From: Selaginella moellendorffii
Lineage: Eukaryota; Plantae; Lycopodiophyta
DNA length: 64,000 nt
Direction of reading: 5' to 3'
Assembly: GCF_000143415.4 (NCBI RefSeq)
Contig: NW_003314285.1
Location: 957,370-1,021,369, forward strand
Shown here piece by piece: positions 29,136 to 59,769 of the stretch. Numbering within the stretch: the first letter of the stretch is position 1; each line of letters starts with the position of its first letter. The position numbers and the translations under genes are program-made. Below the pieces are notes generated by a model. The model was not told the origin of the DNA, searched no databases, and saw nothing but the letters and a program-made list of their open reading frames with translations.

Positions 29136-29326
29136 TTTGGTATCAGAGGAATTGTCTCAGCGATTTCTATCCAACTTTTGTCGGATTTTCTGACTCAAGT
29201 TGCATACGCAGAGACTTTTCTAGTAGATCTGAAGCGACCTGTGTAGGATTAGTTGGATTGCACCATTCGGTAAGAACGTTGTATGCATGTTCAGTTACTG
29301 ATAGAGGCATGCATGCAGCTAGCAGG

Positions 29327-34024: not shown

Positions 34025-34632
34025 TTTTTGTAAATCTTGTAATAAATCTTGCAAATTAATAAAGTAAAATATTTCTATCACTCAAAGTGTCATTTCTCTC
34101 GATCATTTGTACTTGGGTCAGTTTTGGCAGGCTGACTTCGGCACTTCAGTGCATGGGTCCAATCCATAACCATGGGGATAACTATTATAGACTGATCACA
34201 AGTCCCCGCCTCTCTCTCGATGACTCATTTTCAAAAAGGGGCGTGGTCGTGTAAACAACTTTCTCTACCAGTTTATAATAGTTGTCTAAATCTTCCCGAC
34301 GGGGTTGATTTCTTGCTCAGGGGCAGTTGGGCCTCTGGCCTTCTCCCTATATCCCTGCGGGCAGGGATGTATCATTCCTTTGTAAGCCGAGTGGTACTCG
34401 GAGCAGCAAGGGTGGCTAACTCCGTTGGTCATTTCCTTGTCGGCGACGGCCGGAGGGTGTCTGAGTCTTAGCGTCTTTTGACGTAGAGGAGAGGTCGTTC
34501 CATAACTCATTTAAGTCGGTGCATTTCCCACATAGTGTGCTTTCCGTTAACTTTCGGGGTTGTTTCCTTGACGGTTTGCTAGACTCGGGTATGCATCGAC
34601 GAGGACGTCGATCTTCCCCAAGGGGGGGAGAG

Positions 34633-35551
34633 TGTCGCGAATGTGACTTCGGGTATCGAAAGATACTTGTCGACCAGTCCTTACGGGCACTCTTTCCTTA
34701 CTGCCATGACGGCAGGAGGTCGGTACTGCTGGTTCCCTTTATTAGCCCCTCTTGTCCAAGTGTTAGTAAACTGGACTTAGCATCTGTACTTGGCCGGATG
34801 AGCATAAGGACAGAATTCCTAAGTGTCTATTTTGCCAAGCATACTTGGCCTGGCTTTTTAGTTCTCTTTTGCTCTGTCTTGCACTGGCTTGGCAAGAACC
34901 CTCGCGTATTGAGACTAGTCCCTCAATATCGCCGGATGATAGCTTACCGTGTCTGCCAAACACCCTCGCTATCATATCCTTTGTGTTGGTCTCATTTCGG
35001 TCCTAAATGCTAAATATGGAAAGTGTCTAGATTAGCTCATTTGGCATATCTACGGAATGTAGAGATCGGCCTGAACACAATAGTGTTCGTCCCGTGTCCA
35101 AATTCGCAATCTAAGGACATTCCATATTTAGTAAGTTTCGGACTTGTCCCAGAGACTAACTCCTGGTACTAAGGGAGGCTTGGGGTGAAAGCCCAAAGCG
35201 TGTGTCCCTCAAGGGGGGGGGGCTGTGCGGGGTTCCAAATGTATAGTAGGGATAGTGGTTGGAATGCATGTCCGACCACCTGAGACATTAGTTTGGCTTC
35301 CGCTGGGCTGTGTCGCTCCTTGTTCTGCGTCTGGCTTGGGTCTAAGCCCAAGCTCCACGTTGCTCTAGTCGGTGGAGTACCCTCCTTCTCGCGTTAGGCC
35401 ACCGGTATGCCAAAATTGTGCCAGACTCCGTCTGACACCATTTTGCGTGCAGGTGCTGGATACGGGGAGCTGGTGCTCGTGGGATTGTACCGGACCCTCG
35501 TTTCGTAGCGCAACGGGCTTGGAGTTTGGCTCCAAATTCAGGTGCGCTACA
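34633..35551 (+). repeat. 3' LTR of the chromovirus (919 bp)
   Basis: Near-identical to the 5' LTR. Confidence 0.97.
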
Positions 35552-37289: not shown

Positions 37290-40200
37290 CCGGAAGAGAA
37301 CCTCTTGAAGTTGACTCAACTTGCATACCCTATTAGGCAGGATATCCAATGGGGGTCATTCGGGAGAATAAAGGCAATTTGACCAGTTGTGTGAAGGAGA
37401 ATTGTTGCCAAAAGGAATGCATCCTTCAAGTGGTCTTTAGTCAGGTTGTTCTAGCTTGGGACATCACTATTAACATTTGGAAGACCATCTAGCATGTCAA
37501 AGAGCATGAAGTTTGTGCTCTTGAGAGGTTGCCTATGAATATTCTGACAAAAGCACTCTCACTTTTGCCGGATAGCCATATTCTTAGCATCCTCCTCAAA
37601 AAATGACATCAATGAACTGTAGGAGCTAATAAAGATCCCAACTTCACCACGGAATGGCACTAAAGAGATAGAGCGAATCTAGGGGGAGAAGACAAAGATA
37701 AGATATGAACTTAAGAAAAATTTACATACCATCATGTGGCGTGTGGTAGATGTAAGTTCCTTTAGGTCAACTTCTTGGACATCAAAACGAGCTGGAATGA
37801 AGTTACTCCCAATAGTTTTTGCTGCAACCATTTTGAGGAACTAAAAAAAGGAGAGAATTAAGAGAAATATACCTCGAGAAGTTCCTTGATTATGGGGACG
37901 TCTTGGACGATCATCATCACTATTGACTAATTCCTCCAGATGTGGATTTGCACGCTTTCATCGAGGTAGAACTTCTTTGACGTTCTGGTTCTCTTGCTGG
38001 ACTTTGTCTTGAGGAATTTCTTGCAAGTTGTTCTCACTGCCATCTTCACTCTCCTCGCCATTAGCACCAACAGTATCGACATTCTCATGGCCATCATCTT
38101 TGTCATCCGGCATGTCTTCATTATTGCCTCTTGCAGCCTCTCGGTGGGTTGGTGCATAATCTAGCATTTCCAATTCCCAAGGACAAGCTTGCTGCTGAAA
38201 ACTTTATTGTTGTTGGGTACATGCCTCCATCTCTCACACCATGCCTCAAGAGTCGTGTGCATACTGGTGTTTCAAGAGGGACGCCTCTATATTGAAGATA
38301 CCTATAATAGAATATAAACAAATTAAGTATAGTTGAGAAATTGTATGTTACTTGAAAGCCACTCGACACATGAAGTAAAGTTGGCTAAGTTGTTTATCAA
38401 ATGGAGTCGTGCTTATGGCCTTCTTTAACAGCCAATCCTCTCTAAGTTTTATAAACTTAGTGGTGATGAAGTCCTTGAATGGAAGTTGCTCAAGATCATC
38501 CCCTATGAAATGCGCTAGAAACACCTCCCCTTCATATACAGTTTGTGAAATATAGATAGTCCTCCTCATCACAGTCTCCATCATACTATCCAAACCTTTT
38601 TCTCCTTCCCTGAGTCTACTATTGAGGTCGTTCAGAATGTGTATCTGTTCCTCATATGTAAGCTTTGACTTTTGAGATATTGTAAATAATCTCATCTGGA
38701 GTCTTGCCCATTAAGAAATAACTTTTGTGAGTAACCTTCATGTAAACGCAAACAATACTTACTTTCATGACAAGCAATCTCTGTTATAATATCAAACCAC
38801 TCCTTTGGGCGTCGAGGGTCAGCCACACTAAGTAATTTCTTTACCTTTGTCTTCTTTGTGTTGTTAATTTTCTTGTCAATTGCAGCTAAATACTCCAAGA
38901 GTTTTTGATCATTTTCAGCTCGATGCGACTGTGTATATACATCTTGCTTAACCTTCACCAATGGCTGAAGACAACACAAACATTATATGATAAGAAGTAT
39001 ACTTGGAAGAACATACCTTACTCCACACAGCTGTCATAAAAGCCATTGGATTTTTGTACCATCTATTGGCATCTTGACGACCTTGTTGATGCTGAATAAA
39101 TGATGCTAAATCATCACCATAGTGGCTGTGAACTGCATCCTCATTGAGATTGGCAAGAAACCGAATCTTCTTGATATCATGTACTAGACTTTGTTTCTGC
39201 ACTACAAACTGTCCCAACCTGCAAAACACAAATTGTTAAAAGTGATTGAAGAGGGAGAGGTACTTATGCATTAATTTTGTGGCAAGCTATCACAAGCCTT
39301 GCTACATCTAGAGATCCTCTCGCATGTACATGTCCAACCGGAACATTGATGTGATAAACAAGATTGTCTCAGAAGCATTCATTGATGCACTTCATCCACA
39401 CACACCAGCAATGATTCCCATCGATAATGTAGAACATTTTCCCCACAAATTGTTGAGTCTCAGGATGGCTCATAAGCATGTTGTCAAATTTGCGGGACTT
39501 CATTTTCCAAATGTCATCCCAAACCCTCTTGATTTCTGGTGACACCAAGAGGGTATTTGTCATTCCTGGCTTGAAGACCAAAACAAGGAACATACCTATG
39601 TTTGTCCCAAGGCCATTCTGTTTGTACAAACAATAGATGTCCATGTTGACAAAGTGCAGTGAAGCAGACTGAATGATGCTTGTCTGAGTGAATTGACATA
39701 GTGGGATTTCTCGGATTATGTCTCTCGGGCCTTCCCACTTGAGAGACTCTAGAGTCGTGTGAATGGCCTTTTCTTTGGTTCTCAAAACTATCTCTTTGAA
39801 GTGCTTGTCTACAATGTGTTCAGGTAACTCCACTTCTCTTTCAACTTCAGCTACACCTCTAGCAGCACCATTATCAGATCTAGCCCCCAACTTGGGCCCA
39901 ACACCCCCGTCAGGTGCACTTGGGCATTGCTCCATAATGTAGCTAGTTTCTGCCATATTTTGTGAATATGTTAAGAGTAGTGGCATTTTTGGTTGTGGCT
40001 GCAATGGTAGTGACGACAATCACGCTGCTGGTGGTGATGATGGTAGCAGTGGTGGTGGTAATAATGGTGATGATGGCAATGGTGGTAATGGTGGTGATGG
40101 CAGTGGGGGTAATGGTGGTGATGAAGGTAGAGGTGGCAAGGTGGTGGTGGTGGCATCGATGGTGGTGGTGGAAAAAATGGGGGTGCATGTAGACTGGAGC

Positions 40201-40290
40201 TATCTGGTTGCGAAGACGGTAGAGTTGTCGTTGTGAAAATCTTTATCTGAAGGTCAATTTGATTGTTTTCCTAGATCTCATCTTCCTCAT
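37290..40290 (-). pseudogene. ParB/Srx-like + MTase-like accessory gene (MULE copy 2), 3' end deleted
   Basis: GKMFYIIDGNHCW (~39400-39445); NFMLFDMLDGLPNVNSDVPS*N...AFLLATILLHTTGQIAFI (37365-37513). Confidence 0.7.
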
Positions 40291-40657
40291 GTCTTCTCTT
40301 TGATCCAACATCCTTTTCCTTTTGTAGTTGCTTCGGTTTTTTAAAATAAAAAAAACTGATTATAAATTAAAAATGCATAAGAAGCAGGGACTTTGGGACA
40401 TGGACTTGGCACAGGTGCCGTTTGCCAGCGAACTGGCCTGCCCCCAATCGCCTTCGCCGGCTCGCACCAAATGCCCAACACGGGCATTTGGCCCACCCTC
40501 AAGTGCCTTGCCTGGCCTGCCCCCAAGTGCCTTTGCCGGCCTCGTGTGGAGTGCCTGGCTTGGGCACTTAGCGCGAGTGCCGGTTCGCCGGCATACTGAT
40601 GGCCTGCCCAGGTGGAGTGCCCGGCCAAATGCCTAGCCTAGGCACTTGGCAGCGATG

Positions 40658-41242
40658 TGTAAGCAACTAAAGGGAACAACTTGAGAAACGATCCATAGGG
40701 GTTCAAATATAGAGGCAAAGGGCCCATGAATAAGTGTGCACCCCTTTTTCCAATCGGTTAAGGGTTTTGGGATATTTGGGGTTAAATGTCCTTGGGTTTG
40801 AATAATACTGTGTTAGATGACCTCTTGGGAAGTCCAAATTCAGGAGCTTATATTTGGTATCAGAGCGGTCTTGGGTCTGACTCTGTTGGTTGGCTAAGTG
40901 AATCACACCACATGTTAATTGACATCTGGCAAGTCCAATTTGCTCCCACTGGGCTCGACCCGAGGGGTAGGGTGTCAAGAGAGTGGGGCTCTCAAGAGAG
41001 CTGCGGCTCTCAGCTTCCATTCACGAGGGCAAGGAAGTGTGGTGGATTGTAAGCAACCAAAGGGAACGATTTGAGAGACGATCCATAGGGGTTTAAATAT
41101 AGAGGGAAAGGGCCCATGAATAAGAGTGCACCCCCTTTTCCAATCGGTTAAGTGTCTTGGGATATTTGGGGTTAAGCATTCTTGGGTTTGAATGGTACTG
41201 GACTGGGTGACCTCTCGTGAAGTCCAAATTCAGAAGCTTACA
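40658..41242 (+). mobile_element. TRIM (terminal-repeat retrotransposon in miniature), 585 bp
   Basis: 195-bp LTRs 40658-40852 and 41048-41242 (TGTAAGC..GCTTACA), PBS TGGTATCAGAGC, purine-rich tract before the 3' LTR, TSD CGATG/CGGTG, no ORF. Confidence 0.92.
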
Positions 41243-42890
41243 CGGTGGCGCTGGGCACAGCGGCAACAGCACTGGGCATGGCAGTGGCGGTGCTAGGCAG
41301 TGGTGGTGTTGGGCATGGCGTGGCGTGGGTGTGGCGGTGTTGGGCAACGGCGGCCCTAGGCAGTGGTGGCACTGGGTGTGGCGTGGCGTGGCGTGAGTGC
41401 GGTGGCGTTGGGTGTGGCGTGGGAGTGGAGGAGAGGGAGTGGAGGAGTAAAAAACTTACTCTTGGTGGCATTCTATTTGACGCCGATGGATCCCGCAGTC
41501 ACTCCCAATCTCCTGCTCTAGTTTCTGTAAAACCCTAATGCCAGCAGCTGCCCTAACCCTAACCTAACTTTCATCACATCTGTTCATCCTGGATGCAGTA
41601 AATCTTCATTACATTCTACAAATATTTGCTAGCAATGTACAATTTCTATTCCATCCTAGATTTGATCACGTGACAAAGTCCTTTTGAGTTGTAATTTAAT
41701 AATGGAGGTGTCCTCTAATATGACTATGCCATAATGTGGAAATAATGACAGACACATGTGTTGAATTAATCACAGTACGAAATTATAAATGAGAATTATG
41801 TGTTTCTTGCAAGTAATAGCATCTTGTCAGAAAATATCAAATTATTAAATAATAAGGTGTTATTTCCAAAGCAATGTATATAGATAATTTACTATAGGTG
41901 ATAGATGGTAGTAAAAGATGGAATATATTTAAATGAGTTCAGAAGAATGTGATGATTTCTGGCTTTAATGAAGTATTGAAAATATGTACAATATTTAATT
42001 TGTTTGGCAACAATTGGTTGATGGTAGATCCTAGAATAAAATCATTCCTATCTTTCATATTATGGCACATGCTTGAAGTGGTATTTCTTTCCGTTTTACC
42101 AAAAGTTAATCTATATAATAAATTTGAGCATGTTTTTGAATTCAATGTATACAGACTTTTAATATTGTACAACATAGTTTTATATACTTCATATAGAATT
42201 TATTATAACAACATTATTCAATGTTAGATCCTAGAATTAAATCACCCTTTCTTTTCACATAATGCCATAGCACATATTTGAGGTGACAATTCTTTATAAA
42301 AGTTCAGAGTTCCAAAATCTAAAGGCAAAAAAATGGAGAGTTTCCTTTTGCATTAACCCACCACTTTCTTTCTCCCAAAGTCTTATTTCAAAAAGTTTTC
42401 TTTGCGAATGTTTCGATCTTTCTCTTGGTTTTATTTCATTGAAGGTTGTGATTCGCAACAACATTGGTGTAGTTGAACGATCGGAGTTTTTTCTTTCGAG
42501 TGTAAGTGAAGGTGGACAACATTGGGATTTGCAACATTCCAAATCGAAGGATATTTGAGTTTTTAGATCTCCAATCAAAGTGCGAGGCTACGATTCTACC
42601 AAAGTGAATATGAACCAAGAGTTAGTTGTCATCATTTCTTCCTCTTCTAGTTCTAGTGGAGATTTTAGTTTAGTGCGAGCCAAGAATTTCCAAACTGCAA
42701 CTTCACCGATATTTAAAGCTGTTTGTAACACTTTCCAGTTTTCCCGCCTTTCTATCAACATGCGTTCCTTTCTGCATAGGCCTGTTAGCGAGCTCCTATC
42801 TACATACAATGGCAATATCTTCTTTGAACTACCACCTCTTGTCAGTTCAAAATGAAAGGGGATGGAGACGAAGTAAGACATCCACAACTG

Positions 42891-45800
42891 TGTAAGCGAC
42901 TAAATTTTCCATTTTACTTTAGTCACTTAACTACACCTCCAACCACTTGGAGGAGTCTCACTCACAACCTCCATAAGTCCTATTTCAGATTTGGGCTTGC
43001 TAGCCCCGAGAATGGCATCCCTGCCACTCAACCTTTGCACTTGATCCAAGTGCTCCACATGTCCGATCCCATGATCGACACCCCAAGGTACCACCGACAT
43101 ATCAGCCCGTTATGCTAAAGCCATGCCCCTTTACTTTGGTCACACCGGAGGTCTAACACCACCTGCATCACAGTCCCATCTCTCAAGGACTGGGCCAATC
43201 ATTCCAGATCCACTCCTTAGCATCCTTAGGATGCCCACAGACATGGGGAATAGCCTTCCCCAATGTCCCCTTTCTAGTCTTCACCAAGTCCCTTTTTACC
43301 CATGGCCGTGTTCACCAACACTGCCACTGGATCGAGGCCCACAGGCCCGACCACTAAGTCCCACAGTCCTCTAGGACTTCCTCACCACTCAACAGAGGAC
43401 TACTCCTCTTCCTTTCCACAGTCTAGGCCTTTGGGACAACATTTCGGAACACCGTGGCCCTACGCAGGCCTCATGGGTACTCTCCCCGCCTTCTGCCTTT
43501 GGGTGCTCTAGCCATGGGCTTAGAGCGAGGTTCCGTTAAGCCACACTTGGTATCCAAGTAGGTAGTGCCACCCACACTTGGATTGGGAGCATCGGCCAGT
43601 CGATCTCCCGGGGGAACTAGAGCCGGCTCTTGAATACTTCACCAAGCTACCCCGCTTGTCGGTCCGTATTCACTCTAGTCTTGGACTTCCCAGTGGTCAG
43701 TTCATCACCCAACACTGGGTATGGCCTTCCTGGCCTTTCCTGGGCCAAACTGGCCTTTCCTGGCCAAACTGGCTCCACTAGGTTCCAACCCCCACACTCT
43801 CCCTACTATACTTTTGGAACCCCCCGCAGCCCCCCCCCCCCCCCCCCCCTGGGGGACAATCGCTTTGGGCTTTCACCCAACTGCTTGTATTAGTATTCGG
43901 ACTCGGACTCGGACTCGGTCTCGGTCCCGGATTCATACTCGGACTCGGTCTCGGTCTCGGTCTCGGCCTCGGTCCCGGTCTCGATTCCATCTCGGACTCC
44001 ATCTCGGAATCCATCTCGGGGCCATCTCGGAATCCATCTCGGGTCCATCTCGGAATCCATCTCGGACTCCACCTCGGGTCCATCTCGGAATCCATCTCGG
44101 ACTCCCCCTCGGGTCCATCTCGGAATCCATCTCGGGTCCATCTTGGAATCCATCTCGGGGCCCTCTCGGACTCCCCCTCGGACTCCATATCGGACTCCAT
44201 CTCGGACTTCATATCGGACTCCATCTCGGACTCCATATCGGACTCTACTTCGGGTCCATCTCGGACTCCATATCGGACCCCATCTCGGACTCCACTTCAG
44301 GTCCATCTCGGACTCCAACTCGGGTCCGCCTCGGACTCCATCTCGAACACTTCCACGTGTCATGTGTTGGTCCTTTTTGGGTCCCTTTTTGGAGCCTTGC
44401 TTATTAGTTGCCTTGTGCTTGCTCCTCAAGCACTTTGTTGGGAGTTCCACTCCTGCTCTCGACCTTCCAAGTCGAAGCTTTTAGTCCAAACGTGTTATGC
44501 TCGTTTGGCTTTCGCTTCGGCCACTACCACATGGCACCCTTTCCGGCTCCACTTTGGGGCCTTGGGATTTTGTGTCTCACAACTCCACCACCCATAGACA
44601 AAGTTCGATGTCCTCATCGAACGATAAACGATTTTACAAAGTAACACCCGCATGTGTTACCATTTCCATCCTTGGCACCTAGCCAATATTTGTCAATAGT
44701 TTGACATTGAAGGCTCACCATGCCTTCTCCATATTCGTCAATGGTTTGACACCAAAAGCTCACTATGCCTTGCCCATCCTCTAAGGAGCATAGTCTTTCC
44801 AACATAGAGACTTATTCGACCACCTGGGGTGGTTTGCTCCCTTTTATTGGTTCAGTTCTCACTAAACCCATTAGAGACATCTTCTTTAACTCAATTCCCA
44901 CTACTCATTCTCGAGTGGTCTCAGTTCCCATCGATATAACCTTTGCACTTTGGAACTTTGAATTTTGACTTCTTGGAGTTAATTTCCTAGGTGTCTCCGA
45001 CACCTTGCCTTGCACCTTTTGTGCAACTCCACTTCCCATCCTAGGAAGTTCTCTACTCGAGGGCACCATCATCCTTTTTTCTATTTCGTGCCACCCTGGG
45101 GCACTAAGTTCCAGTTATCATACTTTGTGCTAGGGCTGTTCATGGCCCTATCATTTGGCTACCTTACCGCTCCCTGCCTTGGAGCTTCCCCTTTCGCCAA
45201 ATCGGAGCAATTCGGAATCCATCCTTGGAAACACACTTCCTTTCCCGCAATTTGTTAGCGTCCAATATATTAGTGTTCCTCGCTTAACTTTGCCACTTGG
45301 ATTCCTTCCAAGGGATTCCACATCCCTATCTTGGCCACTCATCTTTTGCTCCTATCCGTTGATTGTTGCACTAAGCAACACCGAATCTCTACCTCCCTCC
45401 TTAAGGTATTCTTTTGATTCCATAGCAAAGGCTCTACTTTGCCAAGACTAAGGTGTTCACCCCTAGTAAGACTTTTTAGCATCTTCTACTGTGGGCTCTA
45501 TTCACGGCCCAACTTTGCGACCCTTCCATAGGTCTCTTTAGAGATTGCTTTCCTTGGACACACTATGCCATCGCAATGACATAGCTCATTTCCCTAAGGT
45601 GCTTTTCCCACTTGGTCACCTTGACCAAGCCACACCATCATCAATAATTCAAATCAACACTTTGAACTAGGAACCTTATTCCTTAGCCCAAACAAGGACC
45701 TTGTCCTTATTTAGCCACAAGATCACCTAGTGATCTCACCTCGACACCTTAACAGGTTTGCCAATAGATACTAGGTCTTCCAGACCTTTAACTTGTTAAC

Positions 45801-46144: not shown

Positions 46145-46586
46145 AAGCTCTATTTCGTTAAAGTGGGAATTGTCATTATCCCACTTGTAAAATAAGGTTT
46201 CCAAACCTTTATATAGTATATAAATATAACAAAATTCAACTGCATTGAGGCACATGCCATTTTATTTTAAACAAGGAAATGTCTACTCAATCACTTCTCC
46301 TCCCCCTGCCACTGCTTCACCTCTCTCTTCTCCTTGTCATCGTCGTCCAATTTCTTTCCATCCTTTTAATATTGGCTCAGTTGCTCCGAGTCTAGGTGGA
46401 GCCCAAGTCCCCATTCAATCTTTACTTTCCCCTTATTAATAAAACAACTTCGTAGACTTCTAATAACATGCTGTAACACTTCTAGTATAATGCAAATCCT
46501 CTCAAAGAATTGTCTTTTAATATTAATACAATGGCATGGAACCCCATGCCATAATAAGTTACATTTTTAAATAAATACATGCCATC

Positions 46587-49500
46587 TCAGACTGTTATTT
46601 TTTGCCTCCAACGCCTATACAATAATCTTGGAATTTCATCACTCTCCACACTATCAGGATTTAAACCCAATAGTAATGCCATCTCTTCTCTAATACGTCC
46701 ACGCTCATGTTCAGTGGTCGAAGAACCCATCCAGTTGAGCAGATTATGGAGATGCGGATAGTGCTTGGCTAGACAATATACATGCCATAAATGATGACTG
46801 GTGTCTGTCCGATCAAATGGCTTCTGATATACCGTTCCATCTGCCATTTGGTTGATTTCTGCAGCCACCTCCTGGATTGGCCAGTTCTCTATCACCATCG
46901 CTCCAAGCCGTTTTGCAAGGTCCCCTAGAACATACAGTTTCTTCTCCCTAGTTTCCATACTGCAAGAGATGGGGTGCACTGCATATGTGTGCGTGTTCGC
47001 TGCAGTTTTAATCGGCGAGTCATCGATGATGAGGATTTCACTTGACCTAGCAGTCCAGTTCATCACTACAGCCTCTGGCTTGACGAAGATGGGCTTGCTA
47101 CCCCTCACATGGACCATAGTCAAGCAATCCTCCTGCGTTAGGAGAAAGTCAAATGGTAATATTACTCGCGTCTGATCGTGCATCATCTGTAGCAACGTTA
47201 ATGCATTGTGGCGCATCATGGATGTCCAAACTCCCAATTGCAAATTGAACCTGGCCCTCTGTTTTAAGTGTCGTATGGTCATTATTAGATCCCGCAGTTT
47301 CTCCCGTGTGATTAATGTGAATCTATCTCTTTTGACCAACTTGCGACCGCAGGTTTTGAAGGGTGCAGTGACATTCGAGGACGAGCCACGCTCATGGGAG
47401 AAAAGGATACCGTTCAGATCAAAAACGATACAGTACCTTCGCCATGACTCTGGAATGAAATGCGTCAGCATAAAAAATGGTACAAGTCAATTTTACCATC
47501 TACAATATTAGCGAATGGTGCTCCCGATGGTCGTTGAGAGGGTTTTGGTCGAGGAAACGTGAAGGGCGGAAATACTCTCCTCTGCAATGTGGGGTCAATC
47601 GCATCCGATGGCGTGTGGGCACATGCCATTTCAGCTGTAGACTCTGGTACAACTGACTCAACAGTGGCATGGGGTGGTTCCGATGGCGTGTGATCACACG
47701 CCATTTCAGCTGGTGCCTCCGTTGGCAAAGTGGACATGACTGAACAGGCAGTAGGGGCGGTGTAGGGAGGTTCCAATGGCGCGTAGTCAGACGATTGGGC
47801 ACACGTTGAGTCCATTGGAAATGAGGATACGACCGGCTCGGCGGCTGGGGCGGCCTCATGTGGGTCCAATGGCGCCTGGTCACCGTCAGTTGGATACGTG
47901 GACAAGATTGACTCAGTGGTATGGGCAGCATCAAGTGGAGCGTGGTCAGCTTGCTTGGCGTTGATATGGATAGTAGCCTCCACCAGTTCTGATGACTCTT
48001 GCAGGCAAGTAGAGTCCACTGGTGGATCCATATGCATGTCCAAATATCTCCCTTCGATTGAGATGGTATCCTCCCGTGCCACTAAAAACAAACTCATTAG
48101 CACATTGAATCGACTATATTGTATTTACCATCAACTGCTATTGAGGAACTAGGACCGATATCACTTGGGCGCACTGCTGATTCTGAAGGATTGGACATAC
48201 GTTTCGACCCTTGCTTGGCACTATCCTTCCTCGACACTAAAGGCTAGAGTTTGTAAATTCAACTGAATAATCTCTACTTACCATTTGCTCTGTGACCTAC
48301 ATGGACAATGTTAGAAATGGTAAAAGGTTAGGAATGGATGTACTATTATTTACCTGATGGTTTGTCTTGTATGACCTTCCTCCGCTGCTTTTTGGCCACC
48401 TCAGGCTAGCCATCGTCGTCATCATCGTCGTCGTTGTTATTGTGATCATCACCATTGTGAGGACCATCCAAGTCCTCTTCGTCCTCCTCTTCTTCGTCCT
48501 CCTCTTCTTTGTCCTCCTCTTCGTCCTTCTGCTCTTCCTGCTCATTATCTTTCTTTGGCTCCTCATCCCCCTCCTGCATTTCTTCCATAGGCTGCTCAGG
48601 CTGGATGGCTTGTTCTTCCAGGACCATCTTGGGAAAATCATCTGGCCGAGTCTCCATCTCAAAATACAAGACATCCATAGCTTGTTTTAGTGCGTGACCT
48701 AGGACCGTATCCTCACCCGACTGTCTTAACATGGTTTATGCACATTCTTGCACCCTTCGAAGACAACGAGATGAGAAAAACGTGGCCCTGACTTGAAAAG
48801 CATCCCTCATCCATTGTACCTCTCCATTGAGATTGGGGAAGGGGAGTCCGCCATAGGAATTTGAGTCAGGAGGTGGTGACTGGCTGCTTTCGCACACACG
48901 CCATAACCGCGAGGTATTACCTATCATCTTTTCGTTGCCCTTCTTCCTTTTTGAATCAAACGCCTCTGATCCCGACGACTGTCCAACGTGCTTTCGCTTT
49001 TTATGACCACTGTCAGTTTGAGCTTGGCTGGTGCTTGCCTGTTTTGCCTTTGAAGAAGTGTCTCCTGCAAGGAATGGCATGAGACCACACGCCATTGCAA
49101 ATATAATTTGTACCTCTTTTTTTCCTATTGCTTGTCTGTTTGTCCTTCTTCGACGCGCCACCAGTGCGCTTTTCAGTCCTCGTGTCTGAATATTCACAAC
49201 GATCTATAATCAAAATGGCGTGAGGCCTCACGTGACCTTACCTTGTGCAGGTTGTGAGCTCAGCCCAACAGTAGCTGTTAACGCTGTTTCAGCATCTGGG
49301 GGTGGCCACGCTCCTGCATACAGAGCTTGTGAGATAACATTTAAACTTAAAGTGCGTACTCACTAGGTTCGCAGAGAAGATACTGTTTTTCTTTGGCAAC
49401 TGTAATTATATGCTCCATTGAAGTCACCTCTTCAATGGAGTTTGTCACCGCAACACACGGGACACCCTTGAGTAGTGCGGCTCGAAAGAATAGTCTGCCG

Positions 49501-52244
49501 CAGTTGTACTCAACAACGTATTTGCCCTTGGAGTCGGAAGCAGGTGACCCACCCACTATTGCGTTGAAGACCCAGCTGAGCATTTCTCATGCTGCACCTG
49601 GAGCTTTCTCTGGATTTGAAAGCTCCATAGCCGTCTTCAGTTCCTCAGGCACGGGTAAATTGACCTCCCTCAGATCAATTCGATCGGCCTTGTCGAATGA
49701 AGCTGGGAAGTCACTCCAGTCCCACTCTGCTGCAGGACCAATAACAAGGGCGAGTGTAAAGATGCGGACATTCGTCGGTATCTTCTTCTTAGCCATTATC
49801 CCATGGATCTCCTGCATCTCCTTGCCTTTCAACCGAGCCTTCACCTCGTTCAAGGCCTTCCAGAACTTGTGATAGGATTTGGAGTCGTAGATCATATAGT
49901 GGACTGAAGATTCCACCTCCGCAAGTCCCACCATTAAGTCAATGATGGAGCTGACTTCGTCTGCATGAGTGATCTCCTCGTTTGTGAAGTCCATCACACA
50001 AAAGATGTTCTTGACCTGCTCATCTCCGCGGGAAACGATGCTCCTCCACCTTTGATCCTCATCCGAATTCACATATACCCGGTAAGGTTCTCGATAGGCC
50101 TCTGCTGCGGGGTCGAGCTGTTTCTGAAGCCGGCGGTCGACATCCCTTTTAATGAAATTTGGATACTGATCCAACTTCTCAGCTTTACTTTTCGTGGCAT
50201 CTCGCAGCAGATCGATGAACTTGGGGGCCCCCTTCACGTACTCGTTGATGTCTTCATTTGACAACTCCAGCTCTTCCATCATCTCTTGCGTGGTGTCGAT
50301 GCTCACCCTCTCCACGGCCACTTGCTCGAAGATCCAATCCTTCAATAGCGCACGAGCTCTCAGAGTCGTGCACAAGTCCTCATATGTCACAATATGGCCG
50401 GGAGTCATTTTGGTCTTATTGAAGACTACCTCACCACATAGAAGAGCATTAGCCACTGTCAGAAGGTCGTCGTCGTCTAGAGACCGCGAGAAACGCAAAG
50501 CATTGAGCTTCAAATCATTGGGCTTCCGGCCGTCCTCCACACCCATTGAGTTTAGCAACTCCCCATCATGGTACCTCCTCAGCACATCTACCCATTTGTC
50601 AAAAACAACTTTTGTCGCGAGTAGAATGTTATGGATGCTGAGTGTGTCATTGACCCCCAGTGTTTCGAGAGAAGACTCGAGAATTCCTGCAATGGAAATG
50701 GCGTGAGGCCACATGCTATGCCACATGCAACGAGGCTTACCTACCAGGCGCTAGTTGCTAGTGCACGTCCTTGTCCTGGTTTTTGTGGCTTCTTCAGTTG
50801 AACCTAGAGCTTCCGTGTTCGTGCCAATGTCTCGTGCAGACCTGATTTGTAGCACGTTTCTTGCTTGACATTCTACGCGTGGGAGATGGATATGATAGAT
50901 CGGAGGGGCGAGTTGCCTTTTATCAGGCGGACAACTCTTGTCTTGAAGACTTTCTTCACCTCCTCGCCCACCATAATATCCACAACTATCTCTTGCATCG
51001 CCAAGCTATAATGCTGCCCAGAGACGGCATAGAACCGGATGTTCTAATTGTCCAACACCTTCCTATTGATCAAGTCTGGAAACCTCGTCTTGCCCTTCAT
51101 TGTTCGATAGTAGGGGATCACGTCTGCGATGTCGGGTGTTACTGGACTTGCCAGCATCTTCTGCTTCAGTTTCTCTACCCACTCATCAGATACTAGCCTG
51201 TGGTTGTATTTGCTTTGGATGTCGATACGGCTCACGTCGATTGTATATACTTTGTTGGAATAGTACCAAGTACTATTATCTGTGATGATTTTTGCTGCCT
51301 CTTCTTGCTCTTTCTGCTCTTTGCGGCTCTTCTTTTTGGTGGGTGTAGTGTTCGAACCCGAGGCAATGGCATCACCGAGTAACTTCTTTTTTTGGAGCAA
51401 GAGAGTCGGACGTCAGCTTGAGCTTGACCACCTTTTTCTGCTTCGGGGTAGTTTCCAGATCGACCCCCTTCCCCTTCGCTTCGCGAACTGGAGGCACTCT
51501 CAACGGCTCAATGTTGGAATATAGTTTTTGAACATCGCCGTAGGTGAGGTCCGTGGATTCCATGTGATCTTCATAGACCCGCAGCGTCTTTGAAATTGTG
51601 GGCCTCCTGGACAACCTCTCCCTAGCTCCCTCTAGGAATTCCTCATAGCCGCTGCCCCCCTCCGGGAAGCTGCTAGGATGTGCAAGGTGGATCTTGAAGG
51701 CAGACGCTGTCTCTACCACAAGTGCCAGTCCATATTCTTGCATGGAACTGCATGGAGTGTCTGTCACTTGGATGAGGATCCCCATGCATTCTTTTCTCCC
51801 ACCATCTGTGTTGTACAGCCTCAGATCCTCGCCTTCCATCCCGAAAGTCCAACTGGTGAGCTCCTCCCCCTTCTCTGCATCCACATTGACAGTGGCTGGA
51901 AGAAGAACGCAATTCCTCGCCTGTTCAAAAATGCACAACAATTAGAGCTGACAGATGAAAAGCTAGCAGCTGGAAATAACGTGAGGCCACACGCCATTCA
52001 CCACTGCATCAGATGTCTTGAGGCTGCATCCTAAGATGGCGTGAGGCTACACGCCATCTGTAACCGGACTGCACTCGAGAGCCCAATCGGTGCATGCCAA
52101 TGTTGCTACTGAATGGCATGTGGCCTCATGCCATTTTCTACTTGGCCTAAAAGACTTACCATTTGAAGCCGAATGGAGGCGTGACAATCGAGGCCAGACT
52201 CGCTGGCGAATGTGCACTGTGTGTGCAGCGGATCGTAGCAGCAA
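46587..52244 (-). pseudogene. Multi-exon accessory gene: ParB/Srx-like, degenerate MTase-like fold, acidic linker, FCP1/NIF-like HAD phosphatase
   Basis: RLVSDEWVEKLKQKM..IADVIP..FYAVSGQH; GKYVVEYNCG..RAALLKGVPCVAV; IVFDLNGIL, GVWTS, IIDDSPIK; phase-1 GT-AG junctions join the exons in frame; several in-frame stops and one frameshift (~51400); 5' end uncertain. Confidence 0.7.
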
Positions 52245-53755
52245 GGCTACTCTGCCACTTACAGTTGGAGAGTGGCGCTAAAATCTCCCGGGACGCCAAG
52301 TGGGCTGCGTGTGGGTGGCGGAGTGGGCGGCGGAGTTGGCGGCGAAGTTACAAACTGGGTGTGTCTTGAAGTGGACGCCGATGCACACGAGCGCGATGCG
52401 AGCGCGAGTGTGATGCAAGAGCGAGTGGACGCCGATGCACACGAGAAACCTGTAGAGAAGGTAGATGAGCGCGAATGTGAGCGTGATCGCGAGTGGGAGC
52501 GTGATGCGAGCGCGAGTGTGATGCGAGCGCGAGCACGAGTACGAAGCAAAATGCAAAACCTAACCTCACACGTGCGAAATGTCACGACGGTTGGTAATCC
52601 CGCCACGTCATCATTCCTCGGACTTGGGCGCCACTATTAATTTCTGGATTGCCGCGCGCATGCAAGCACGCAAAATCCAAAAGAAATCCGCAACGTCATC
52701 ATTCCTCGGACTGCATGCACGCGAAATCCAAAAGAAAGATCATGATTGGGATATCATTTAATACCCTCGCTATATTTATACCATGCATGATTGGATATTC
52801 CAAAGCATCTTGTATTTCCAAAAATGGCAGATGTTCAGCTAAATAAAGAAATTCTATCTGTTTCTATTTTTCTCTCAAATCAATATTATAGCGTGTGGGC
52901 TCATGCAATTTTGAACCAAAGAAACCCAAAAAACGTTGGACCCAAAATATTTTGAAAAAACCCAAAAAACCCTAAACATTCTAAACCCAAAAGTCCAGGC
53001 GTCCTGTGGCGTTATTCCTTGAATGGCATGTGGGCGCATGCCATTTTCAGGGCCAAATGCTGAATGGAGAAAAATTCCCTTTCAGTGCAAATGCTGCAAG
53101 AGGCAGATGCCGAGCACAAAGGACTGTAACTACCTCACATGACACAGATAAACTTTTCTCTATTTGGCAAAGATAAACTTTATAGCGTGTGGGCTCATGC
53201 AATTTTGAACCCAAAAAATGCACCAAAAAATTCTCGGCGTCATTTGGCGTTATCTCTTGAATGGCGTGGGGCCGTATGCCATTTTCAAGGGCACATAGGA
53301 GTATATTCCTAGGATATCCTGACATGTGTGAGATTTTTTTGAGTTTTCTGGAGATCCAACTGTTAGATCGCAACTAGATTTTACAGAATGGTATACAATG
53401 CCCTTCTTGATGACCCTGCAGAGAAGCATCTCGATCGGACACCACATGAGACCACACGAGCCTTACAATATTTCAGGGGCATTTTCCATAGATCCGACCG
53501 TTATTTTGCTCCAAGATTTTACAGTTTGGTGTGCATTGACCTTTCCATTGACACTGCAAAGGGACACCACAATCAGATGTGGGATCACAAGACACCAACT
53601 TCACTAACTTTGGTTTCACCAAGATCTACGTAAGGAGTTATGAAATGAAAGGACCCTCTCTATTGAAATGTGTTTATGGTCCTAGGGGCATTGTGACATA
53701 TCAAAGGATTTTGCATCAAGTTCTGTATTTGCATGTTTATCAAGCTACTGAATTG

Positions 53756-53782
53756 CTAAACCCTAAACCCTAAACCCTAAAC
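53756..53782 (+). repeat. Interstitial plant telomere repeat / telo-boxes (CCCTAAA)x3-4
   Basis: CTAAACCCTAAACCCTAAACCCTAAAC. Confidence 0.85.
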
Positions 53783-55076
53783 ATGTGGCAAATGCTGCGT
53801 GAAGAAAGATGCCCTTTCTGGGCAAATGCTGTAAGAGGCAGATGCCGAGCAGATGTATCTCAGGCTAGCGAAGGGGACAAACGAAAGCTAGCTATAAACA
53901 TGACGGGATGCAAATAGATTACTAGGCTGGTCTTGCGAAAATCAAAAACCATAATTGAAAACATTGAAAATGCAAAAAGAAAGGTTTATAATATTTTTGA
54001 ATTTTAAGCAACCAAAGGAATGTAAGTAGGGCATGTGTTTGTAAGTTTCAAAATGCCTCAACCACTTAAATTCCCAAGTAAATAAAGTTGTTTCTATTTT
54101 TGGTACAGGTAAACTTTATAGCGTGTGGGCTCATGCAATTTTGAACCCAAAAATGCACCAAAAAATGCTCGACTAGCATTATTCTTTGAATGGCGTGTGG
54201 CCTTATATTGCCATAAATAGACGTACACACACAGCATAATTATTCCTTTACACGGAGAATAATCTTGGCGCGGATCGCTGACATGGCATGGCAAAGTTCG
54301 AATCACTGACATGGCACAGCTGGATCGAGGCAAGGACATGATGTGACAAAGTTTAACCTCCGACAGCAAAGTCTAGAAGCTACTCAGTTTAAAATTTGTC
54401 AGAGGAATCATAAGATCTGGTTTGTCAGAGGATTTGATGTGACGTTCAAGCGTGTGTTATTTTTGAATTCTCGAACTCATTCCTAGGTCTATCATTTTTG
54501 TGCGCCGTGTTCTTGGTTCCGCTGAGCGCAGTGAGCGCTGCTTGTGTAAGCGACGTTGTGAGCTGTGGTTTATGCATCTACGAGCGGTTGCGGCATTGTG
54601 AGCGCCATTGCGAGCGGCAGTTTATGCGAGTGGCAGTTTGTGCGAGCGGCGCTACGAGCAGTTGCAGTGTTGCGAGCGGCGCTACGAGTAGTTGCGGTGT
54701 TGTGAGCGGCACTGTCTTTGGTGTGGCTACCGCTTCCTCTTGATATTCGGCACTTGTGCTTCCTGGTATGTTCACCATGGAATGGCTTAGGACCACATTT
54801 AGAAATGGCATGAGGCCACATGCCATCTTGGGCCCTTGCAATTTCATGGCTAGCGTATTGTCATGTATGTTTTTACTTGCCTGCAGCTGTGTGTATATCA
54901 AAATGGCATGAGGGCTCATGTCAATTTTGTGAATGCAAAATTTCACGTGGGTGTCAATAGCATGTTTGAATAATGGCATGTGGCCTCATGCTATTGAGGT
55001 TGTTTGGTATGTTATGATTTAGGCCATTCTCCAATCATTTTTTGTATGGTCTTAACTTCTTTTCTGCACTTTCAGA

Positions 55077-58000
55077 ATGGCCTTCAGGGTTGGTGAAAAG
55101 GTTTACATTTTGAATGGTGGGAAGAGAGTTGCAAAAGAGACCCTTATGTCTATGGATCGGAACTTTGTTATACACTGTCAAAGGCTTGGGGAAGGCAATG
55201 CTGCTGTATCAGTAGAGACTGTCTTCGATGGGAATGTGGTCGCTATTAAACGAGGAGAGATGGTCGTCGGGGTAAATGTTGTTGTTGCCTTGAAAAATCT
55301 TCAGAAGAAAGTAGATGTTGGGGACAGCGCAAGTGCGACGCATATTCCCTCCGTGGATCTTAAGAACCGTGCTACATGGATTTAGGCAAAGGTGTTTCTA
55401 AACAAACCAGAGGGGGAGGTGGTAGCTGAGGGCTTAGCCACAGTTGTCGATCCAAGAGATGCGGTTGCTAATCAAGAATTGGGCTGGGATGCTATTGGAG
55501 TTGCGATTTTAGAGGTTGTTCACACAGAAGAAAACAGTCTGACTATTAGAAGCATTGTGTGGTGGAAATTGAGGCACTTAGTGTTTGAGAATGTGAAGGA
55601 TTCACAATCAAACACCACTACAACTGATGACAGAACATCTCTTCATGGGAAAAGAAAGTACACCTTCCTAAAGTGCAGCCAAAGGGATCTAAGCAATGAA
55701 CTGAAAAGGCAGAAAATGGCGATGGAGGTTAGAATGGTCTCGACAGTTGCTTGTTGCAAGAGGAGGTGCTGTCAACATGCTGATTGGGATGCTATTGAAG
55801 AGGAGAGAGCAAGATACAAGACATTGTCCTGGAAGGCAACTCGCAATTTTGTGTATGAGGCATTACGGTCATCTGTTGATGCTTCAGAACATCAGGTGGG
55901 GGGCATGGTCTTCCAGAGGGGTTTGGTCTGCATGAAGGCATGGAGAATCATTTATGGAGTCCCTCGAACCACATTCTACAGAATCAAAACTGAGTTCGAG
56001 GAACAAAGGGTTCAATAGGCAGTCCATGGGAACGACGGTACGCACAAAACCAGAGGTCATGTTGTATATGGAGAGGCAATCTTCAAGAGGTTTGTCGAGA
56101 CATGTAGCGAGCAGCAACCACATAAAACCCGCCTCTTGGAAGATGGAACACGAGACACCCAACGAGTTCTCCCTTCCATGTATACCAAGGGGGCCATATT
56201 GGAAGATGTGAATCGGGAACTCCAGAGTAATGGGTACAGGAAGCTGAGCCAATCTAGATTTAGTAGATTGTGGAGCAACAAGTTCAGGGATGTGAGTATA
56301 GGAAAGTACTCCAGCTTTTCAAAGTGTGACGAGTGCACTGCTATCAAAATGGCTTTGTCGAAGAATTCTTGCAGTGCTCAAGAGCGAGAGACGTTGGTTA
56401 GAAGGCGGCTCGACCACAACATCGAGCAGAGAAGCTGCAGGACTGCATATTATCATAACAGGATTCTCTCCATGGAGAGACCTGACTCTTACCTCTGCAT
56501 CATCCACGACAAAATGGACCAGAAAAAGATGTGCTTACCTCGACTCAATCCTGCCCCCAAGGCAATCTCTTCATCCATGCAGCTGCCTGTGTCTCTGTTT
56601 GGCATAATCGCTCATGGGCATGGTGCCCAGAACTATGGGAACTTCTTTGTACCTCTATGGGGTGGCGAGGGTGCAAACATGATGATTGCGTCCCTAGCAA
56701 AACACTTAAGGTCTCTGCAAAGTGCGCAGACTGAGCTGAACGGCCAACCCTTGCATAAGGCCCTTGTCGATCGAACCCCATATAGGGTTCAGCTGGAGGA
56801 GGAGCAAAGGTTTGCAGTATCGCGTGGGGCCCCATGCCATCCCAGTGAATATGTTGGCCGTCAGATTGTAGGGTTATCACGTGAGGCCTCATGCCATTCC
56901 GACGAGGCTGGTCGCCCGGTGAATGCACAGCCTCATCCAAATGAAGCAGAATCTCAAGGAAGTTCTTGCGGCCAATGTGGCCTTCCACCCCATCTTCTGC
57001 TCCAAACAGACAATGCTGGCAGTGAGAACAAAAACATGTACGTCTTCGCGTACTTGGCGATGCTTGTTGCCAAAGGCATATTTGAAACGGTTACACTTGG
57101 CTTTCTCATGGTTGGGCACACTCATGAAGACGTCGATGCCATGTTCAGTCACCTGGCAGAGTCCCTCCGGCGATCCAATGTCCTCACCCTCCTACAACTC
57201 TACGATGAATTCCAAAATTGCATCAAAGGCACTGTTAAAGCTGCACTTGTGACAGAGGTTCCAGACTTTAAGGGGTTTGTAAGAGGCTACATCAGGAACG
57301 GATCCGAAACGCTGATTGGCCACTCCAAGCCTCTTCAGTTTCATTTCAGCATGTGTGACGGTGCTCCAGTGATGAGGTACAAGATGAGAGAATGGGACAT
57401 AGTGTGGCTGCCAGTGGACGGCATTGAACTCTTCAAGAGAGATCCCATAACTAGGGAACCTATGATTCCTCAGGGTTCCCCACGACCGATGCACCCAGAT
57501 GGACTCAAAGACTAGGAAAGTATAGTGGCCGGGATTAGACAGCATATTGCCTTCTGGAAGAGGGGGTTGGTGTTTGGTGGAGAATCCTATTTTCAGAGGT
57601 GCAAGCCTTTGCTCGAATACTGGGAGAAGATTATATCTGCTATCCAAAATGGGCCGGTTGTATATGAAGAATTGGAAGAGTCCTTTTGGCCAGAACCCAG
57701 AGCACCAGATAGTAGCGGAACAATGTCCTCTGGAAATGCAGTGACAGATAACGATGTTGAGGATCACTATTGTGGGCCGAGGAACAAGAAGCCAGATTCA
57801 GCATTCAATCCAGTACAGGTCTGCAAAGGAATGGTCGTGTTTGTCAGACCCAGTAATAAAAAACAAATGATATGGGTGGGGCGTTGCATCATTGATGCAG
57901 AGGAGGACGCAGAAACTAACTCCTTCAATGTAACTGTGGAGTGGTTCAAGCCAAGTTCCGGATATACGAAGGATTGCCTAAAAAAGATATGGGTGCTGAA

Positions 58001-58218
58001 TCCAAGGGATCCCAGCATGAGCATATCGGTGGATAATGTTGTGCATGGTTGGATGCGGAAGCAGAGTGCCACCATCACCTTGCCAGACCATGCAAGAGAT
58101 GCAGCAAGAGCATTCATAACCCGGGTTCAAGGTGAGATTCATTAATATTCCTTTACTAAGTTTCTAATGTATTTTATTTCAAGGTGAACAATCCAAATCT
58201 GAATCAGAGGAGGCGTGA
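55077..58218 (+). pseudogene. Sola1-like DDD transposase, ~1020 codons in one frame with three TAG stops; probable small last exon 58184-58218
   Basis: ORFs at 55077, 55392, 56136 and 57525 share a frame; CCKRRC, FSKCDEC, IIHDKMDQ, LQTDNAGSENKN, FLMVGHTHEDVDAMFS. Confidence 0.85.
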
Positions 58219-59769
58219 TGGCATGTGGCCTTACGCCATTCCTAGGTGAGATGATACAAATAACAAGTATAAATTCTTAGTTGTTCTAGCAAATCTTACT
58301 TAAAGTTCAAGGTGAACAAGTCGAATATGAATTCATCGGATTGTTATAACAAATTGCGAGGTGATGGCATGAGGCGATACGCCATTTGAGAGTGGTAGCC
58401 ATTCCTATATGAGGTGAGTGAAATATTTATTAGAAATACCTCATTCAATTGTGCACTTCTAAGTCTTGGTCCACTCAGTACTGTTTGCATGTTTCTATTT
58501 TAATTCTTTCTCTAAAATGTTATTTAGCATGTGGCTTCATGCCATTGCTCTCCACAATCATGCATTGAATTTTTCTATCCTTGCATAATACTTCTCCATA
58601 TATATAGCATATGCGCACATGTGATATGGTTCATTATATAGTGTGTGAGGTAAAACAAAGATGATGTGACATATGCATTTACCAATCACACGTGCATAAA
58701 TCTAATAATATGGCGTGTGGCCCATATTAATGGCACATAAACCCATATTGTGGGCTTACGTGCTTTATGTACCATCATTCCCTTGCAGCGTGTGTGTTGG
58801 TTTCCTTTTATAACACAACAAACTCCATATTTTAGGGTGAAGAGCGTTCTCATGGCAAGCACAAAATCTGTAAGTGAGGCAGAAAAGGAGACGGAGAAGG
58901 AGATAGGTGAAGATGTAGAATATATAAGTCTTCCAAACTCCCCGTACTATACTCCAGGTGATCATTTTTCTGAACAAACGGCAACATTAACAACTATCAA
59001 GAACGCCCCAGTAACATTAGAGACAACAATCCAAAGCAAAACAACTGACCCGGAGAAGGATGATAGTACCGCTGAGAGTACCAAAAAGGAGGTGTCCACT
59101 AGCGCTTAGGCTTATAATGGCGTGTGCCCTCATGCCATTTACTTGATCACCAAATACCTTTTTCCCTTTGCACTAGTATATCTTAATACCAGTCTGAGAA
59201 ATAGAATGGCATGTGCCCTCGGGCCTTTTACTAAATCACCTTTGAAAGAAATGCAAGCCTCTATGTCATAAAAAAAAGGTACTAGAGAAATTCCTTAATA
59301 ATATGAATGTTATTTAGTTTCATGAAAATACACTAAGGGTCAAATGAGTTAAATGACTTCTCCAGACTAGCAATGCCTCTTGCTACACCTTCACAATTAG
59401 ATTCGTTAGAAAAAGATAACATTGAATAATATCTAAATGTTCTCACCATTAAGTTATATGTCTGGCTAATAGGAATGACGTTCATCTTGGAAAGCTCACC
59501 ACACGCTCAATGAACAAACAAATAGTGTGTGCGCGCATGCCATCGCTCTTCTTTAGCTTCAGATTCGGCTTGTTCACCTTGACAATGAGATTTATTATAC
59601 AACCAGATGGACTCAATCTGGACACAAAGTCACCGCGCTAGTCACCATGCCCCAGATATGTCTAGCCCCTGTACAAAAAACATATAATTTCACGTCATTT
59701 TCAAATACTTGAAAATTTGTACCTAGTCCCATTTTACTGAATAAATCCCACTTTAACGAAATAGAGCTT

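Follow-up and report, generated by a model that had tools for sequence, protein, structure and literature searches.

A decayed accessory gene with an FCP1-like domain in a many-copy DUF7869 transposon of Selaginella moellendorffii

The stretch analysed here (the window) is 64,000 nucleotides (nt) of Selaginella moellendorffii DNA from contig NW_003314285.1. It contains a plant DNA transposon of 13.6 kilobases (kb), present in many copies, with a DUF7869 transposase and, on the opposite strand, an accessory or "cargo" gene, of which the region at 46587-52162 is a decayed copy; the transposon is likely of Sola type. Its terminal inverted repeats, each 27 nt long and 96% identical (left, 46145-46171, plus strand; right, 59743-59769, minus strand), enclose both genes. 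The self-complementary tetranucleotide AGCT is found at both outer ends (46146-46149 and 59765-59768), either as a target duplication of 4 base pairs (bp) or as part of the repeat itself. The right repeat abuts a reverse transcriptase/RNase H frame of Ty3 type, which stops at 59763; the continuation of that Ty3 element, with its integrase, was looked for on the left flank and not found, and the two flanks are therefore not one interrupted locus. The transposase gene (55077-58145, plus strand) matches DUF7869 with an E value of 2.9e-42 and carries the acidic motifs HDKMDQ, TDNAGSENKN and GHTHEDVD, its frame being broken in this copy by three internal TAG stops. DUF7869 is presumably the transposase domain of Sola elements. 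The element starts with CTATT (or AAGCTCTATT) and has none of the GGGTG termini of the described plant Sola elements. Moss and fern Sola representatives, in three rows of Table S2 (PMC12973397), start with GGGTG and form clusters of about 11 kb with inverted repeats of 26-32 bp and 4-bp duplications; the termini given for Ectocarpus Sola1 are AACCG (PMC12477816), so that Sola termini vary. The division into Sola1-3 is given in PMC4455052.

Cargo gene and transposase, on the minus and plus strand respectively, belong to the same element and show even contig depth. Of 24 public sequencing runs, 20 carry the stretch or part of it, none of these being recorded as RNA. Run X1 has 53,187 contig records on 46200-58400, a stretch that leaves the element's ends outside the comparison, and their summed depth, which is not the same as copy number, is 5.7-9.3e5 in all 30 bins; 28,793 of the records are at least 99% identical to the window, 19,230 are at 95-99%, 4,939 at 90-95% and 225 below 90%. 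The element is thus present in many copies, with cargo and transposase travelling together.

The cargo gene was modelled by six-frame reading with a simple splice-site scan and has, on the minus strand, 11 exons and 10 introns, which give 4,932 nt, or about 1,640 amino acids (aa), in the family model. It probably starts at the ATG at 52162 (52160-52162), with which exon 1 ends, and it runs to a stop at 46587. Exon 2 (50741-51920) encodes an N-terminal region, a basic linker and a ParB-like region (about 51262-50741), with four stops and a frameshift at 51387; exon 3 (49364-50686) encodes a helical domain (about 50657-50120) followed by a degenerate region resembling beta-class amino-methyltransferases (50006-49400), with a frameshift at 50662 and one stop. 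Then come exon 4 (49242-49313), which in the window copy has a 15-nt deletion relative to two of four runs, exon 5 (49114-49185), exon 6 (48921-49064), after which the acceptor of the next intron is deleted in the window copy (32 nt at 48891), exon 7 (48354-48891), with an acidic tract at about 48618-48411 and two stops, the micro-exon 8 of 15 nt (48282-48296) and exon 9 (48129-48236). Exon 10 (47497-48081) is a Pro/Ala/Ser/Thr-rich linker with two palindromes in an in-frame duplication of 75 nt, and exon 11 (46587-47449), without internal stop, encodes an FCP1/NIF-type HAD domain. All introns are GT-AG and measure 45-57 nt, except for intron 1 with 239 nt; such lengths are ordinary in the window, since 11 candidate host-gene introns picked by eye between 381 and 5155 are equally short (45-60 nt). 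Thirteen splice sites between exons 3 and 11 stood in the top lists of the scan, while donor 49113 and acceptor 48237 were picked by reading frame.

Introns 3-10 are in phase 1 and, in the family model, exons 4-10 all have a length divisible by three, whereas introns 1 and 2 are in phase 0; the phase-1 junctions of the initial annotation, a model's reading of this DNA, therefore hold for eight of the ten introns. Its micro-exon was recovered at 48296-48282, the join NIVD|ESWRRYCIVFDLNG across the intron at 47496-47450 is present in the sequence, and the motifs that it named were located (FYAVSGQH at 51034, VVEYNCG at 49517, DLNGIL at 47420 and DDSPIK at 47024). The position 52244 that it gave as the end of the region coincides with no boundary that we found, the ATG lying at 52162, and an earlier start is possible, given an intron-like stretch at 52262-52203. 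Two peculiarities were seen near this end of the gene. At 52154, contigs of X19 and X20, runs from separate studies that we guess to be RNA, diverge into the same sequence, absent from the window, which is possibly a host transcript or one of another copy joined into intron 1. Overlapping the intron-like stretch upstream of the ATG are 40 nt (52226-52265) that are shared with contigs of X18 and X20, in X20 at a depth of 1,052 and without a differing letter, the contigs continuing on both sides into sequence unlike that of the window; we take these 40 nt to be the 3' part of large-subunit rRNA, a label that Rfam, given the shortness of the piece, did not confirm.

The window copy of the cargo gene is a pseudogene, with seven in-frame stops (at 51046, 50875, 50806, 50743, 49589, 48738 and 48408), two frameshifts (51387 and 50662), one splice acceptor lost with the 32 nt deleted at 48891, and a 15-nt in-frame deletion at 49265. 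Other copies were studied through contigs of the public runs aligned to 48340-51480, X8, X9 and X5 representing one sample and X2 another. These show sense codons at 48408, 48738, 49589, 50743, 50875 and 51046, and at 50806 as well, so that all seven stops are sense codons in other copies. One base is inserted at 50662 in contigs of X8, X9 and X5 (44% of the depth of X1, 6% of that of X2), and one base fewer is present at 51387 in contigs of X8 and X5 (less than 1% of the depth of X2). The 32 nt that hold the acceptor of intron 6 are present in X9 and X5, with loose ends at this place in X8, X2 and X1; the extra 15 nt at 49265 are likewise found in X9 and X5, and a single X5 contig of 5,260 nt covers all of 48340-51480. 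In the family majority the 11 exons give a single open frame, about 1,640 aa long. One reading frame for all the parts, as the initial annotation had it, in a spliced cargo gene that ends in an FCP1/NIF domain on a transposon, is accordingly supported for the family but not for the copy in which it was read. We consider it highly probable that the cargo family encodes one spliced protein, with splicing presumably as modelled.

The differences between the copies are strongly biased. In each of three small runs, 50 of 55 substitution places read A>G or T>C when scored by the plus strand, and 62 of the 69 listed substitutions are C-to-T in the window copy, on either strand; 32 of these are in CG, 16 in CHG and 14 in CHH contexts, for which 470, 480 and 1,839 sites are available, a pattern of decay that is as expected for host-methylated repeat DNA. 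Assembly error was rejected as the source of the stops, six of the seven being of C-to-T type in methylation contexts, as was organellar RNA editing, since this is a nuclear repeat and DNA contigs carry the sense codon. Synonymous and nonsynonymous counts between the window copy and the majority reflect post-insertion decay, and we read nothing about selection from them. Neither the pseudogene state nor the palindromes described next had been noticed in the initial annotation.

A 22-bp palindrome, ATGGCRTGWGGCCWCAYGCCAT, occurs in 22 copies between 47608 and 59138 (up to three mismatches). All 22 sites are within the element, with none in the other 50 kb of the window and none in 100 shuffles. 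Six lie in cargo introns, eight are intergenic, four are in the right subterminal region, two in exon 10 and two in the transposase frame; the left 1.4 kb of the element has no site at up to three mismatches and two weaker ones at four to six. Coding DNA, which makes up 58.5% of the element, holds four of the sites and non-coding DNA the other 18 (P = 1.3e-4), and of the eight sites inside the cargo gene six are in introns, which amount to 12% of the gene (P = 7e-5). Because the palindromes concentrate in the predicted introns, they back the intron model independently of the reading frame. They are likely candidate sites for the cargo protein. The two sites of the transposase frame lie in an in-frame low-complexity insert (56810-56900) between the first and second acidic motifs, which may conceal an intron.

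The FCP1-like domain predicted at the end of the protein is firm. Exon 11 matches Pfam PF03031 (NIF) with an E value of 7e-6 and 26.2 bits, over a cut-off of 21.8, at about 47435-46983, and its nearest neighbours in the Atlas are FCP1-homology clusters (score 0.95-0.96; 212 of 256 features). These clusters are 91-100% viral by their recorded members (Nucleocytoviricota), which is not a sign of transfer. No PDB sequence was matched at E up to 1, and a word-index search among longer proteins found no relative, which is weak evidence; recent capture of a host FCP1 gene was rejected, as there is no close cellular match. With the FCP1/SCP phosphatases the domain shares the Pfam match and the HAD motifs in their order, but it differs from them in the absence of a BRCT domain, in being a C-terminal fusion in a transposon protein and, above all, in its signature, which reads DLNGIL in the window copy and DLNGVL in the family majority in place of DxDx(T/V). 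Fcp/Scp enzymes are described as depending on DxDx(T/V) (PMC9426563), and with this replacement the activity proposed earlier, that of a phosphatase of the RNA polymerase II C-terminal domain (CTD), is doubtful.

The methyltransferase-like region of exon 3 is connected to known enzymes through distant relatives. Among 1.84 billion proteins, HMMER gave five matches at E up to 0.001, three of which were kept, P0001 and P0003 being dropped as repeat-driven; the set was then extended to P0006 and P0015, and all of these relatives share the helical domain. P0015 aligns with the cargo helical domain at E 2e-13, the alignment continuing through motif I, and itself matches DNA methyltransferase profiles (PHROG, 6.9e-6; PADLOC, 2e-4; a profile built here, P = 5.8e-8), with Pfam N6_N4_Mtase staying below its cut-off at 0.0013 and M.RsrI as the top PDB match at E 0.11. 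A profile of the relatives' C-terminal part places the matching part of the cargo protein first of 853 tiles, with 1 of 1000 shuffles scoring higher. Methylase fold ancestry is thereby suggested, through the distant relative only. The catalytic motif IV, [DSN]PP[YFW], is absent: the cargo protein has CVMDFTN at the aligned place and the relatives have CDAN, CDSA and LDAT, with no [DS]PP[YF] in any row that covers it. Motif I, which binds S-adenosylmethionine (SAM) and has the consensus FxGxG, comes after motif IV (beta order) and reads CVVEYNCGG in the family majority, where it is aligned with YVLDVCTGG of P0015; part of the erosion recorded in the initial annotation is for this reason private to the window copy. 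With the exon-3 model, wide and second-look structure searches returned helical-hairpin matches alone (Z below 6) and no Rossmann match, which is uninformative at such model quality. Exon 3 had no usable match in the Atlas and no relative in the word-index search among longer proteins (again weak evidence). Locus searches of genome and viral contigs gave no match, a glycosyltransferase locus among their results being spurious, and tblastn against phages gave nothing significant.

ParB identity of the front half is weakly supported. The ParB-like region scores 2.6 bits, with 6 of 1000 shuffles as high, when it is compared with a profile built from the N-termini of 18 prokaryotic ParB-methylase proteins, in an alignment that covers the first ParB motif; the remaining ParB-like motifs were read in the order that we assume for them. 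For the exon-3 model the top Foldseek match was P1 ParB (1zx4; E 0.16), and pairwise and profile comparisons with P1 ParB gave no match. The helical domain, in the position of a helix-turn-helix, is modelled at a predicted local distance difference test score (pLDDT) of 50-80, and the ParB-like region at one of 30.7. The arginine patch GERRxR, through which ParB binds cytidine triphosphate (CTP) (PMC7053999), is absent, with SGQHYSLA in the window copy and SGQHSSLA in the family majority. Judged by its motifs, the cargo protein falls outside the catalytic ParB proteins, amino-methylases and FCP1 enzymes alike.

The closest published counterpart is Sola1-1_Ec32 of Ectocarpus, described as an element of 21.5 kb with 282-bp inverted repeats and a 1,104-aa protein that joins ParB and an N4/N6 methylase; its authors point to comparable proteins among green and red algae (PMC12477816). 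Common to the two is an accessory gene opposite the transposase; a Sola-type element and the pairing of a ParB-like region with an N4/N6 methylase are probably shared as well. The algal element is a giant one with a 4-bp target duplication, and its protein has been proposed to bind, and to modify, the element that encodes it; the methylase there is predicted to be active and the passages on it do not mention a phosphatase, whereas here the catalytic motif is lost and an FCP1/NIF domain added. The Selaginella element also differs in its size of 13.6 kb, its repeats of about 22-27 bp, its protein of about 1,640 aa, its land-plant host and its 22 dispersed palindromes. The likeness is drawn from the published description. 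A second algal case is PAG3 of red-algal Plavaka (EnSpm-type) elements, a ParB-like protein (HHpred E 0.29) with nearby inverted-repeat arrays as proposed sites (10.1101/2025.02.11.637652). It resembles the cargo protein in being an accessory protein with a weak ParB call, and an N6-adenine methylase is encoded there by a separate gene; the superfamily, however, is another one, ParB is fused to a 2-oxoglutarate oxygenase and the methylase to SET, and the repeats form tandem arrays beside the gene instead of being spread through introns. In the prokaryotic ParB-methylase fusions (the 18 proteins of our profile) a ParB-like part is likewise followed by an amino-methylase with a late SAM motif (beta order), but they are about 450 aa long with intact G-H-x-R and [DS]PP[YF], both of which the cargo protein has lost while gaining the helical domain, the linker and the NIF domain. 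ParB-methylase fusions of phages, and a chlorophyte ParB-HTH Dam family, are reviewed in PMC4738411.

A different kind of likeness is offered by VANC21 of Arabidopsis VANDAL21, whose motifs are described as lying, within its own element, in introns and in non-coding intergenic and terminal DNA (PMC5735166). Here too an accessory protein is accompanied by motifs gathered in the non-coding DNA of its element, though VANDAL21 is a Mutator-type element, the VANC21 motif is a non-palindromic one of 9 nt, its binding and demethylation have been shown, and no homology is seen; the likeness is a working analogy, not a family. Among plants, a survey of 1,007 genomes records ParB domains in 2 of 1,846 clusters of Mutator-like elements, and NIF, FCP1 and PF03031 are absent from two of its supplements (PMC12973397); Marchantia DN4MT1 is described as an active host N4-methylcytosine methylase with TSPPY, the passages on it leaving ParB unmentioned (10.1101/2021.02.12.428880). 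In the literature covered we found no transposon protein that joins ParB, methylase and FCP1, though subscription journals, Repbase reports and some supplements may hold one. The initial annotation's statement that no such architecture had been described is thus upheld for the FCP1 addition, but a ParB with an N4/N6 methylase on a Sola element had been published (PMC12477816). Its land-plant host, its FCP1-like tail, the degeneration of its methylase and a defined palindrome set the Selaginella family apart from the published cases.

The window copy is dead, and a function is proposed for the family. By analogy, the cargo protein would work in the manner of the accessory genes of algae that join ParB and a methylase and, by the layout of its sites, like VANC. 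Our leading interpretation, which we hold tentatively and with slightly less than even confidence, is that the protein binds the palindromes of its element and serves chiefly as a non-catalytic scaffold, one that protects the element from being silenced. A role of this kind, in which the element's chromatin and transcription are shielded or tuned, is favoured because the layout of the sites resembles that of the VANC21 targets, and we rank it, at the same tentative level, above a transposition cofactor, an active enzyme and a split or passenger NIF domain. The ParB-like and methylase parts would stem from a prokaryote-type ParB-methylase fusion. A dimer would contact each palindrome by means of its ParB-like and helical domains, reading both halves, and the methylase fold, no longer methylating, might be retained as a DNA- or SAM-binding module. 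The NIF domain, on a tether of about 500 acidic, low-complexity residues, could dock phosphoproteins such as the RNA polymerase II CTD with weak or no turnover.

A number of results weigh against this interpretation. The ParB-like region has no match in Pfam, PHROG, NCBIfam, PADLOC or the PDB sequences, the signal from the fusion profile is one of 24 tests and fails multiple-test correction, the chromosomal ParB profile (42 proteins) gives no match (367 of 1000 shuffles as high), and P1 ParB is outside the top 50 of a second aligner for the exon-3 model. The methylase part of the cargo protein matches the relatives' profile weakly (5.6 bits; hhalign E 0.0036, probability 9%), has no direct match to the prokaryotic methylase profiles (61 and 359 of 1000 shuffles) and is modelled at pLDDT 30-48. 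As the ATGGCRTGWGGCCWCAYGCCAT pattern was derived from the element itself, the count of 22 matches is inflated, which leaves the absence elsewhere unaffected, and the palindromes could be sites of the transposase instead. At 51387 a low-depth contig of X19 agrees with the window copy, less than 1% of the depth of X2 having the gap. The heavy C-to-T decay of the window copy means that any shielding was not lasting. In the three runs guessed as RNA, finally, no spliced contig and no junction read across a cargo intron was found; these contigs are unspliced, with no joint at any modelled intron, and the one X20 contig that terminates exactly at 51920, the acceptor of exon 2, is a weak hint only.

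The best of the alternatives, which we regard as unlikely though worth weighing, is a transposition cofactor that binds the palindromes and unites ends 13.6 kb apart for the transposase, any effects on chromatin being secondary. The palindromes and the linkage of cargo and transposase fit this equally well. Maize TnpA and MURB assist their transposases, and ParB proteins bridge and slide on DNA. Both kinds of precedent are documented, in the bridging and sliding of ParB (PMC7053999) and in the interaction of MURA with MURB (PMC12973397). The sites, however, are dispersed over introns and the central spacer instead of being massed at the ends, the arginine patch for CTP-driven sliding is gone, and the acidic tether and NIF domain are left unexplained.

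Distinctly less probable, though nearest to what the initial annotation proposed, is an active enzyme, loaded on the element, that dephosphorylates the RNA polymerase II CTD or a chromatin protein, or methylates DNA by an unusual site. The NIF exon retains the first Asp, WTS, Lys and DDSPxK, motifs whose roles we presume, and is uninterrupted over 286 codons despite its distance from every cellular FCP1; GG persists at methylase motif I in the family, and all relatives covering motif IV have an Asp at that position. Against this, DLNG(V/I)L replaces DxDx(T/V) in the window copy and the family majority alike, and [DS]PP[YF] is found neither in the cargo protein nor in any relative. Similarly doubtful, to our mind, is a bolder variant in which a phage-type ParB-methylase became a ParB/parS-like device of self-recognition and acquired an FCP1 domain: the protein would coat the DNA of its element at about two dozen palindromes and act there on the RNA polymerase II phosphorylation code, as a sequence-targeted CTD phosphatase or a trap for phospho-CTD. 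Binding and modification of the own transposon by ParB-type proteins has been proposed for algal elements (PMC12477816; 10.1101/2025.02.11.637652).

Least probable of all are two separate units, with the NIF exon, alone or together with exon 10, expressed apart from the ParB-methylase part or riding along as a captured fragment. In its favour, no junction read connects the parts, contigs of the guessed RNA runs are unspliced across 47450-47496, the linker exons are of low complexity, and the search among longer proteins turned up no relative over the full length (weak evidence). In the family model, however, eight phase-1 junctions in a row, with seven internal exons whose length is 3n, lead into the NIF exon without a stop; that exon lacks a Met in the stretch from its acceptor to motif I, and its position nearer to giant-virus FCP1-like clusters than to any plant protein of the Atlas misfits recent host capture.

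With its defined candidate site of 22 bp and a consensus frame that is open, the family makes for a simple binding test. The apparently inactive methylase and the added FCP1-like domain suggest that the effector end of such proteins may be swapped (methylase, oxygenase, phosphatase-like) while the DNA-binding front stays. Should the NIF domain indeed touch the RNA polymerase II CTD, the transposon would be tuning its own transcription in a way that we have not found described.

Further features were seen within the element. Right of the transposase, before the element's end, a plus-strand open frame of 122 codons (58741-59109) could belong to a third gene as one of its exons. The spacer that separates cargo gene and transposase contains a short run of plant telomere-type CTAAACC repeats (53756-53781), and an Rfam search of 51900-55100 found nothing real.

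The window as a whole is land-plant nuclear DNA, with compact host genes at 1-8100, among them tRNA-Val and tRNA-Ser (5382-5457 and 5528-5609), followed by nested retroelements and repeats. A near-intact Ty3-type retrotransposon (28211-35512), with terminal repeats that are 98-100% identical and an end that we take to be chromodomain-like, is nested in an older one. Two decayed copies of another repeat, 81-88% alike, lie at 37584-42658 and 11402-16470; in the former, a minus-strand frame (39372-40019) bears a motif, IIDGNH, which is presumably ParB-like, but the frame has no Pfam match and no similarity to the cargo gene. An 80-nt motif starting with GGGTGAAAGC is common to 43795-43878, 28766-28841 and 35183-35257, all within retroelement repeats, and its opening letters are those of a moss Sola terminus listed in Table S2 of PMC12973397. 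Its copy at 43795-43878 is adjoined by a tandem array of 12-nt units (43883-44351).

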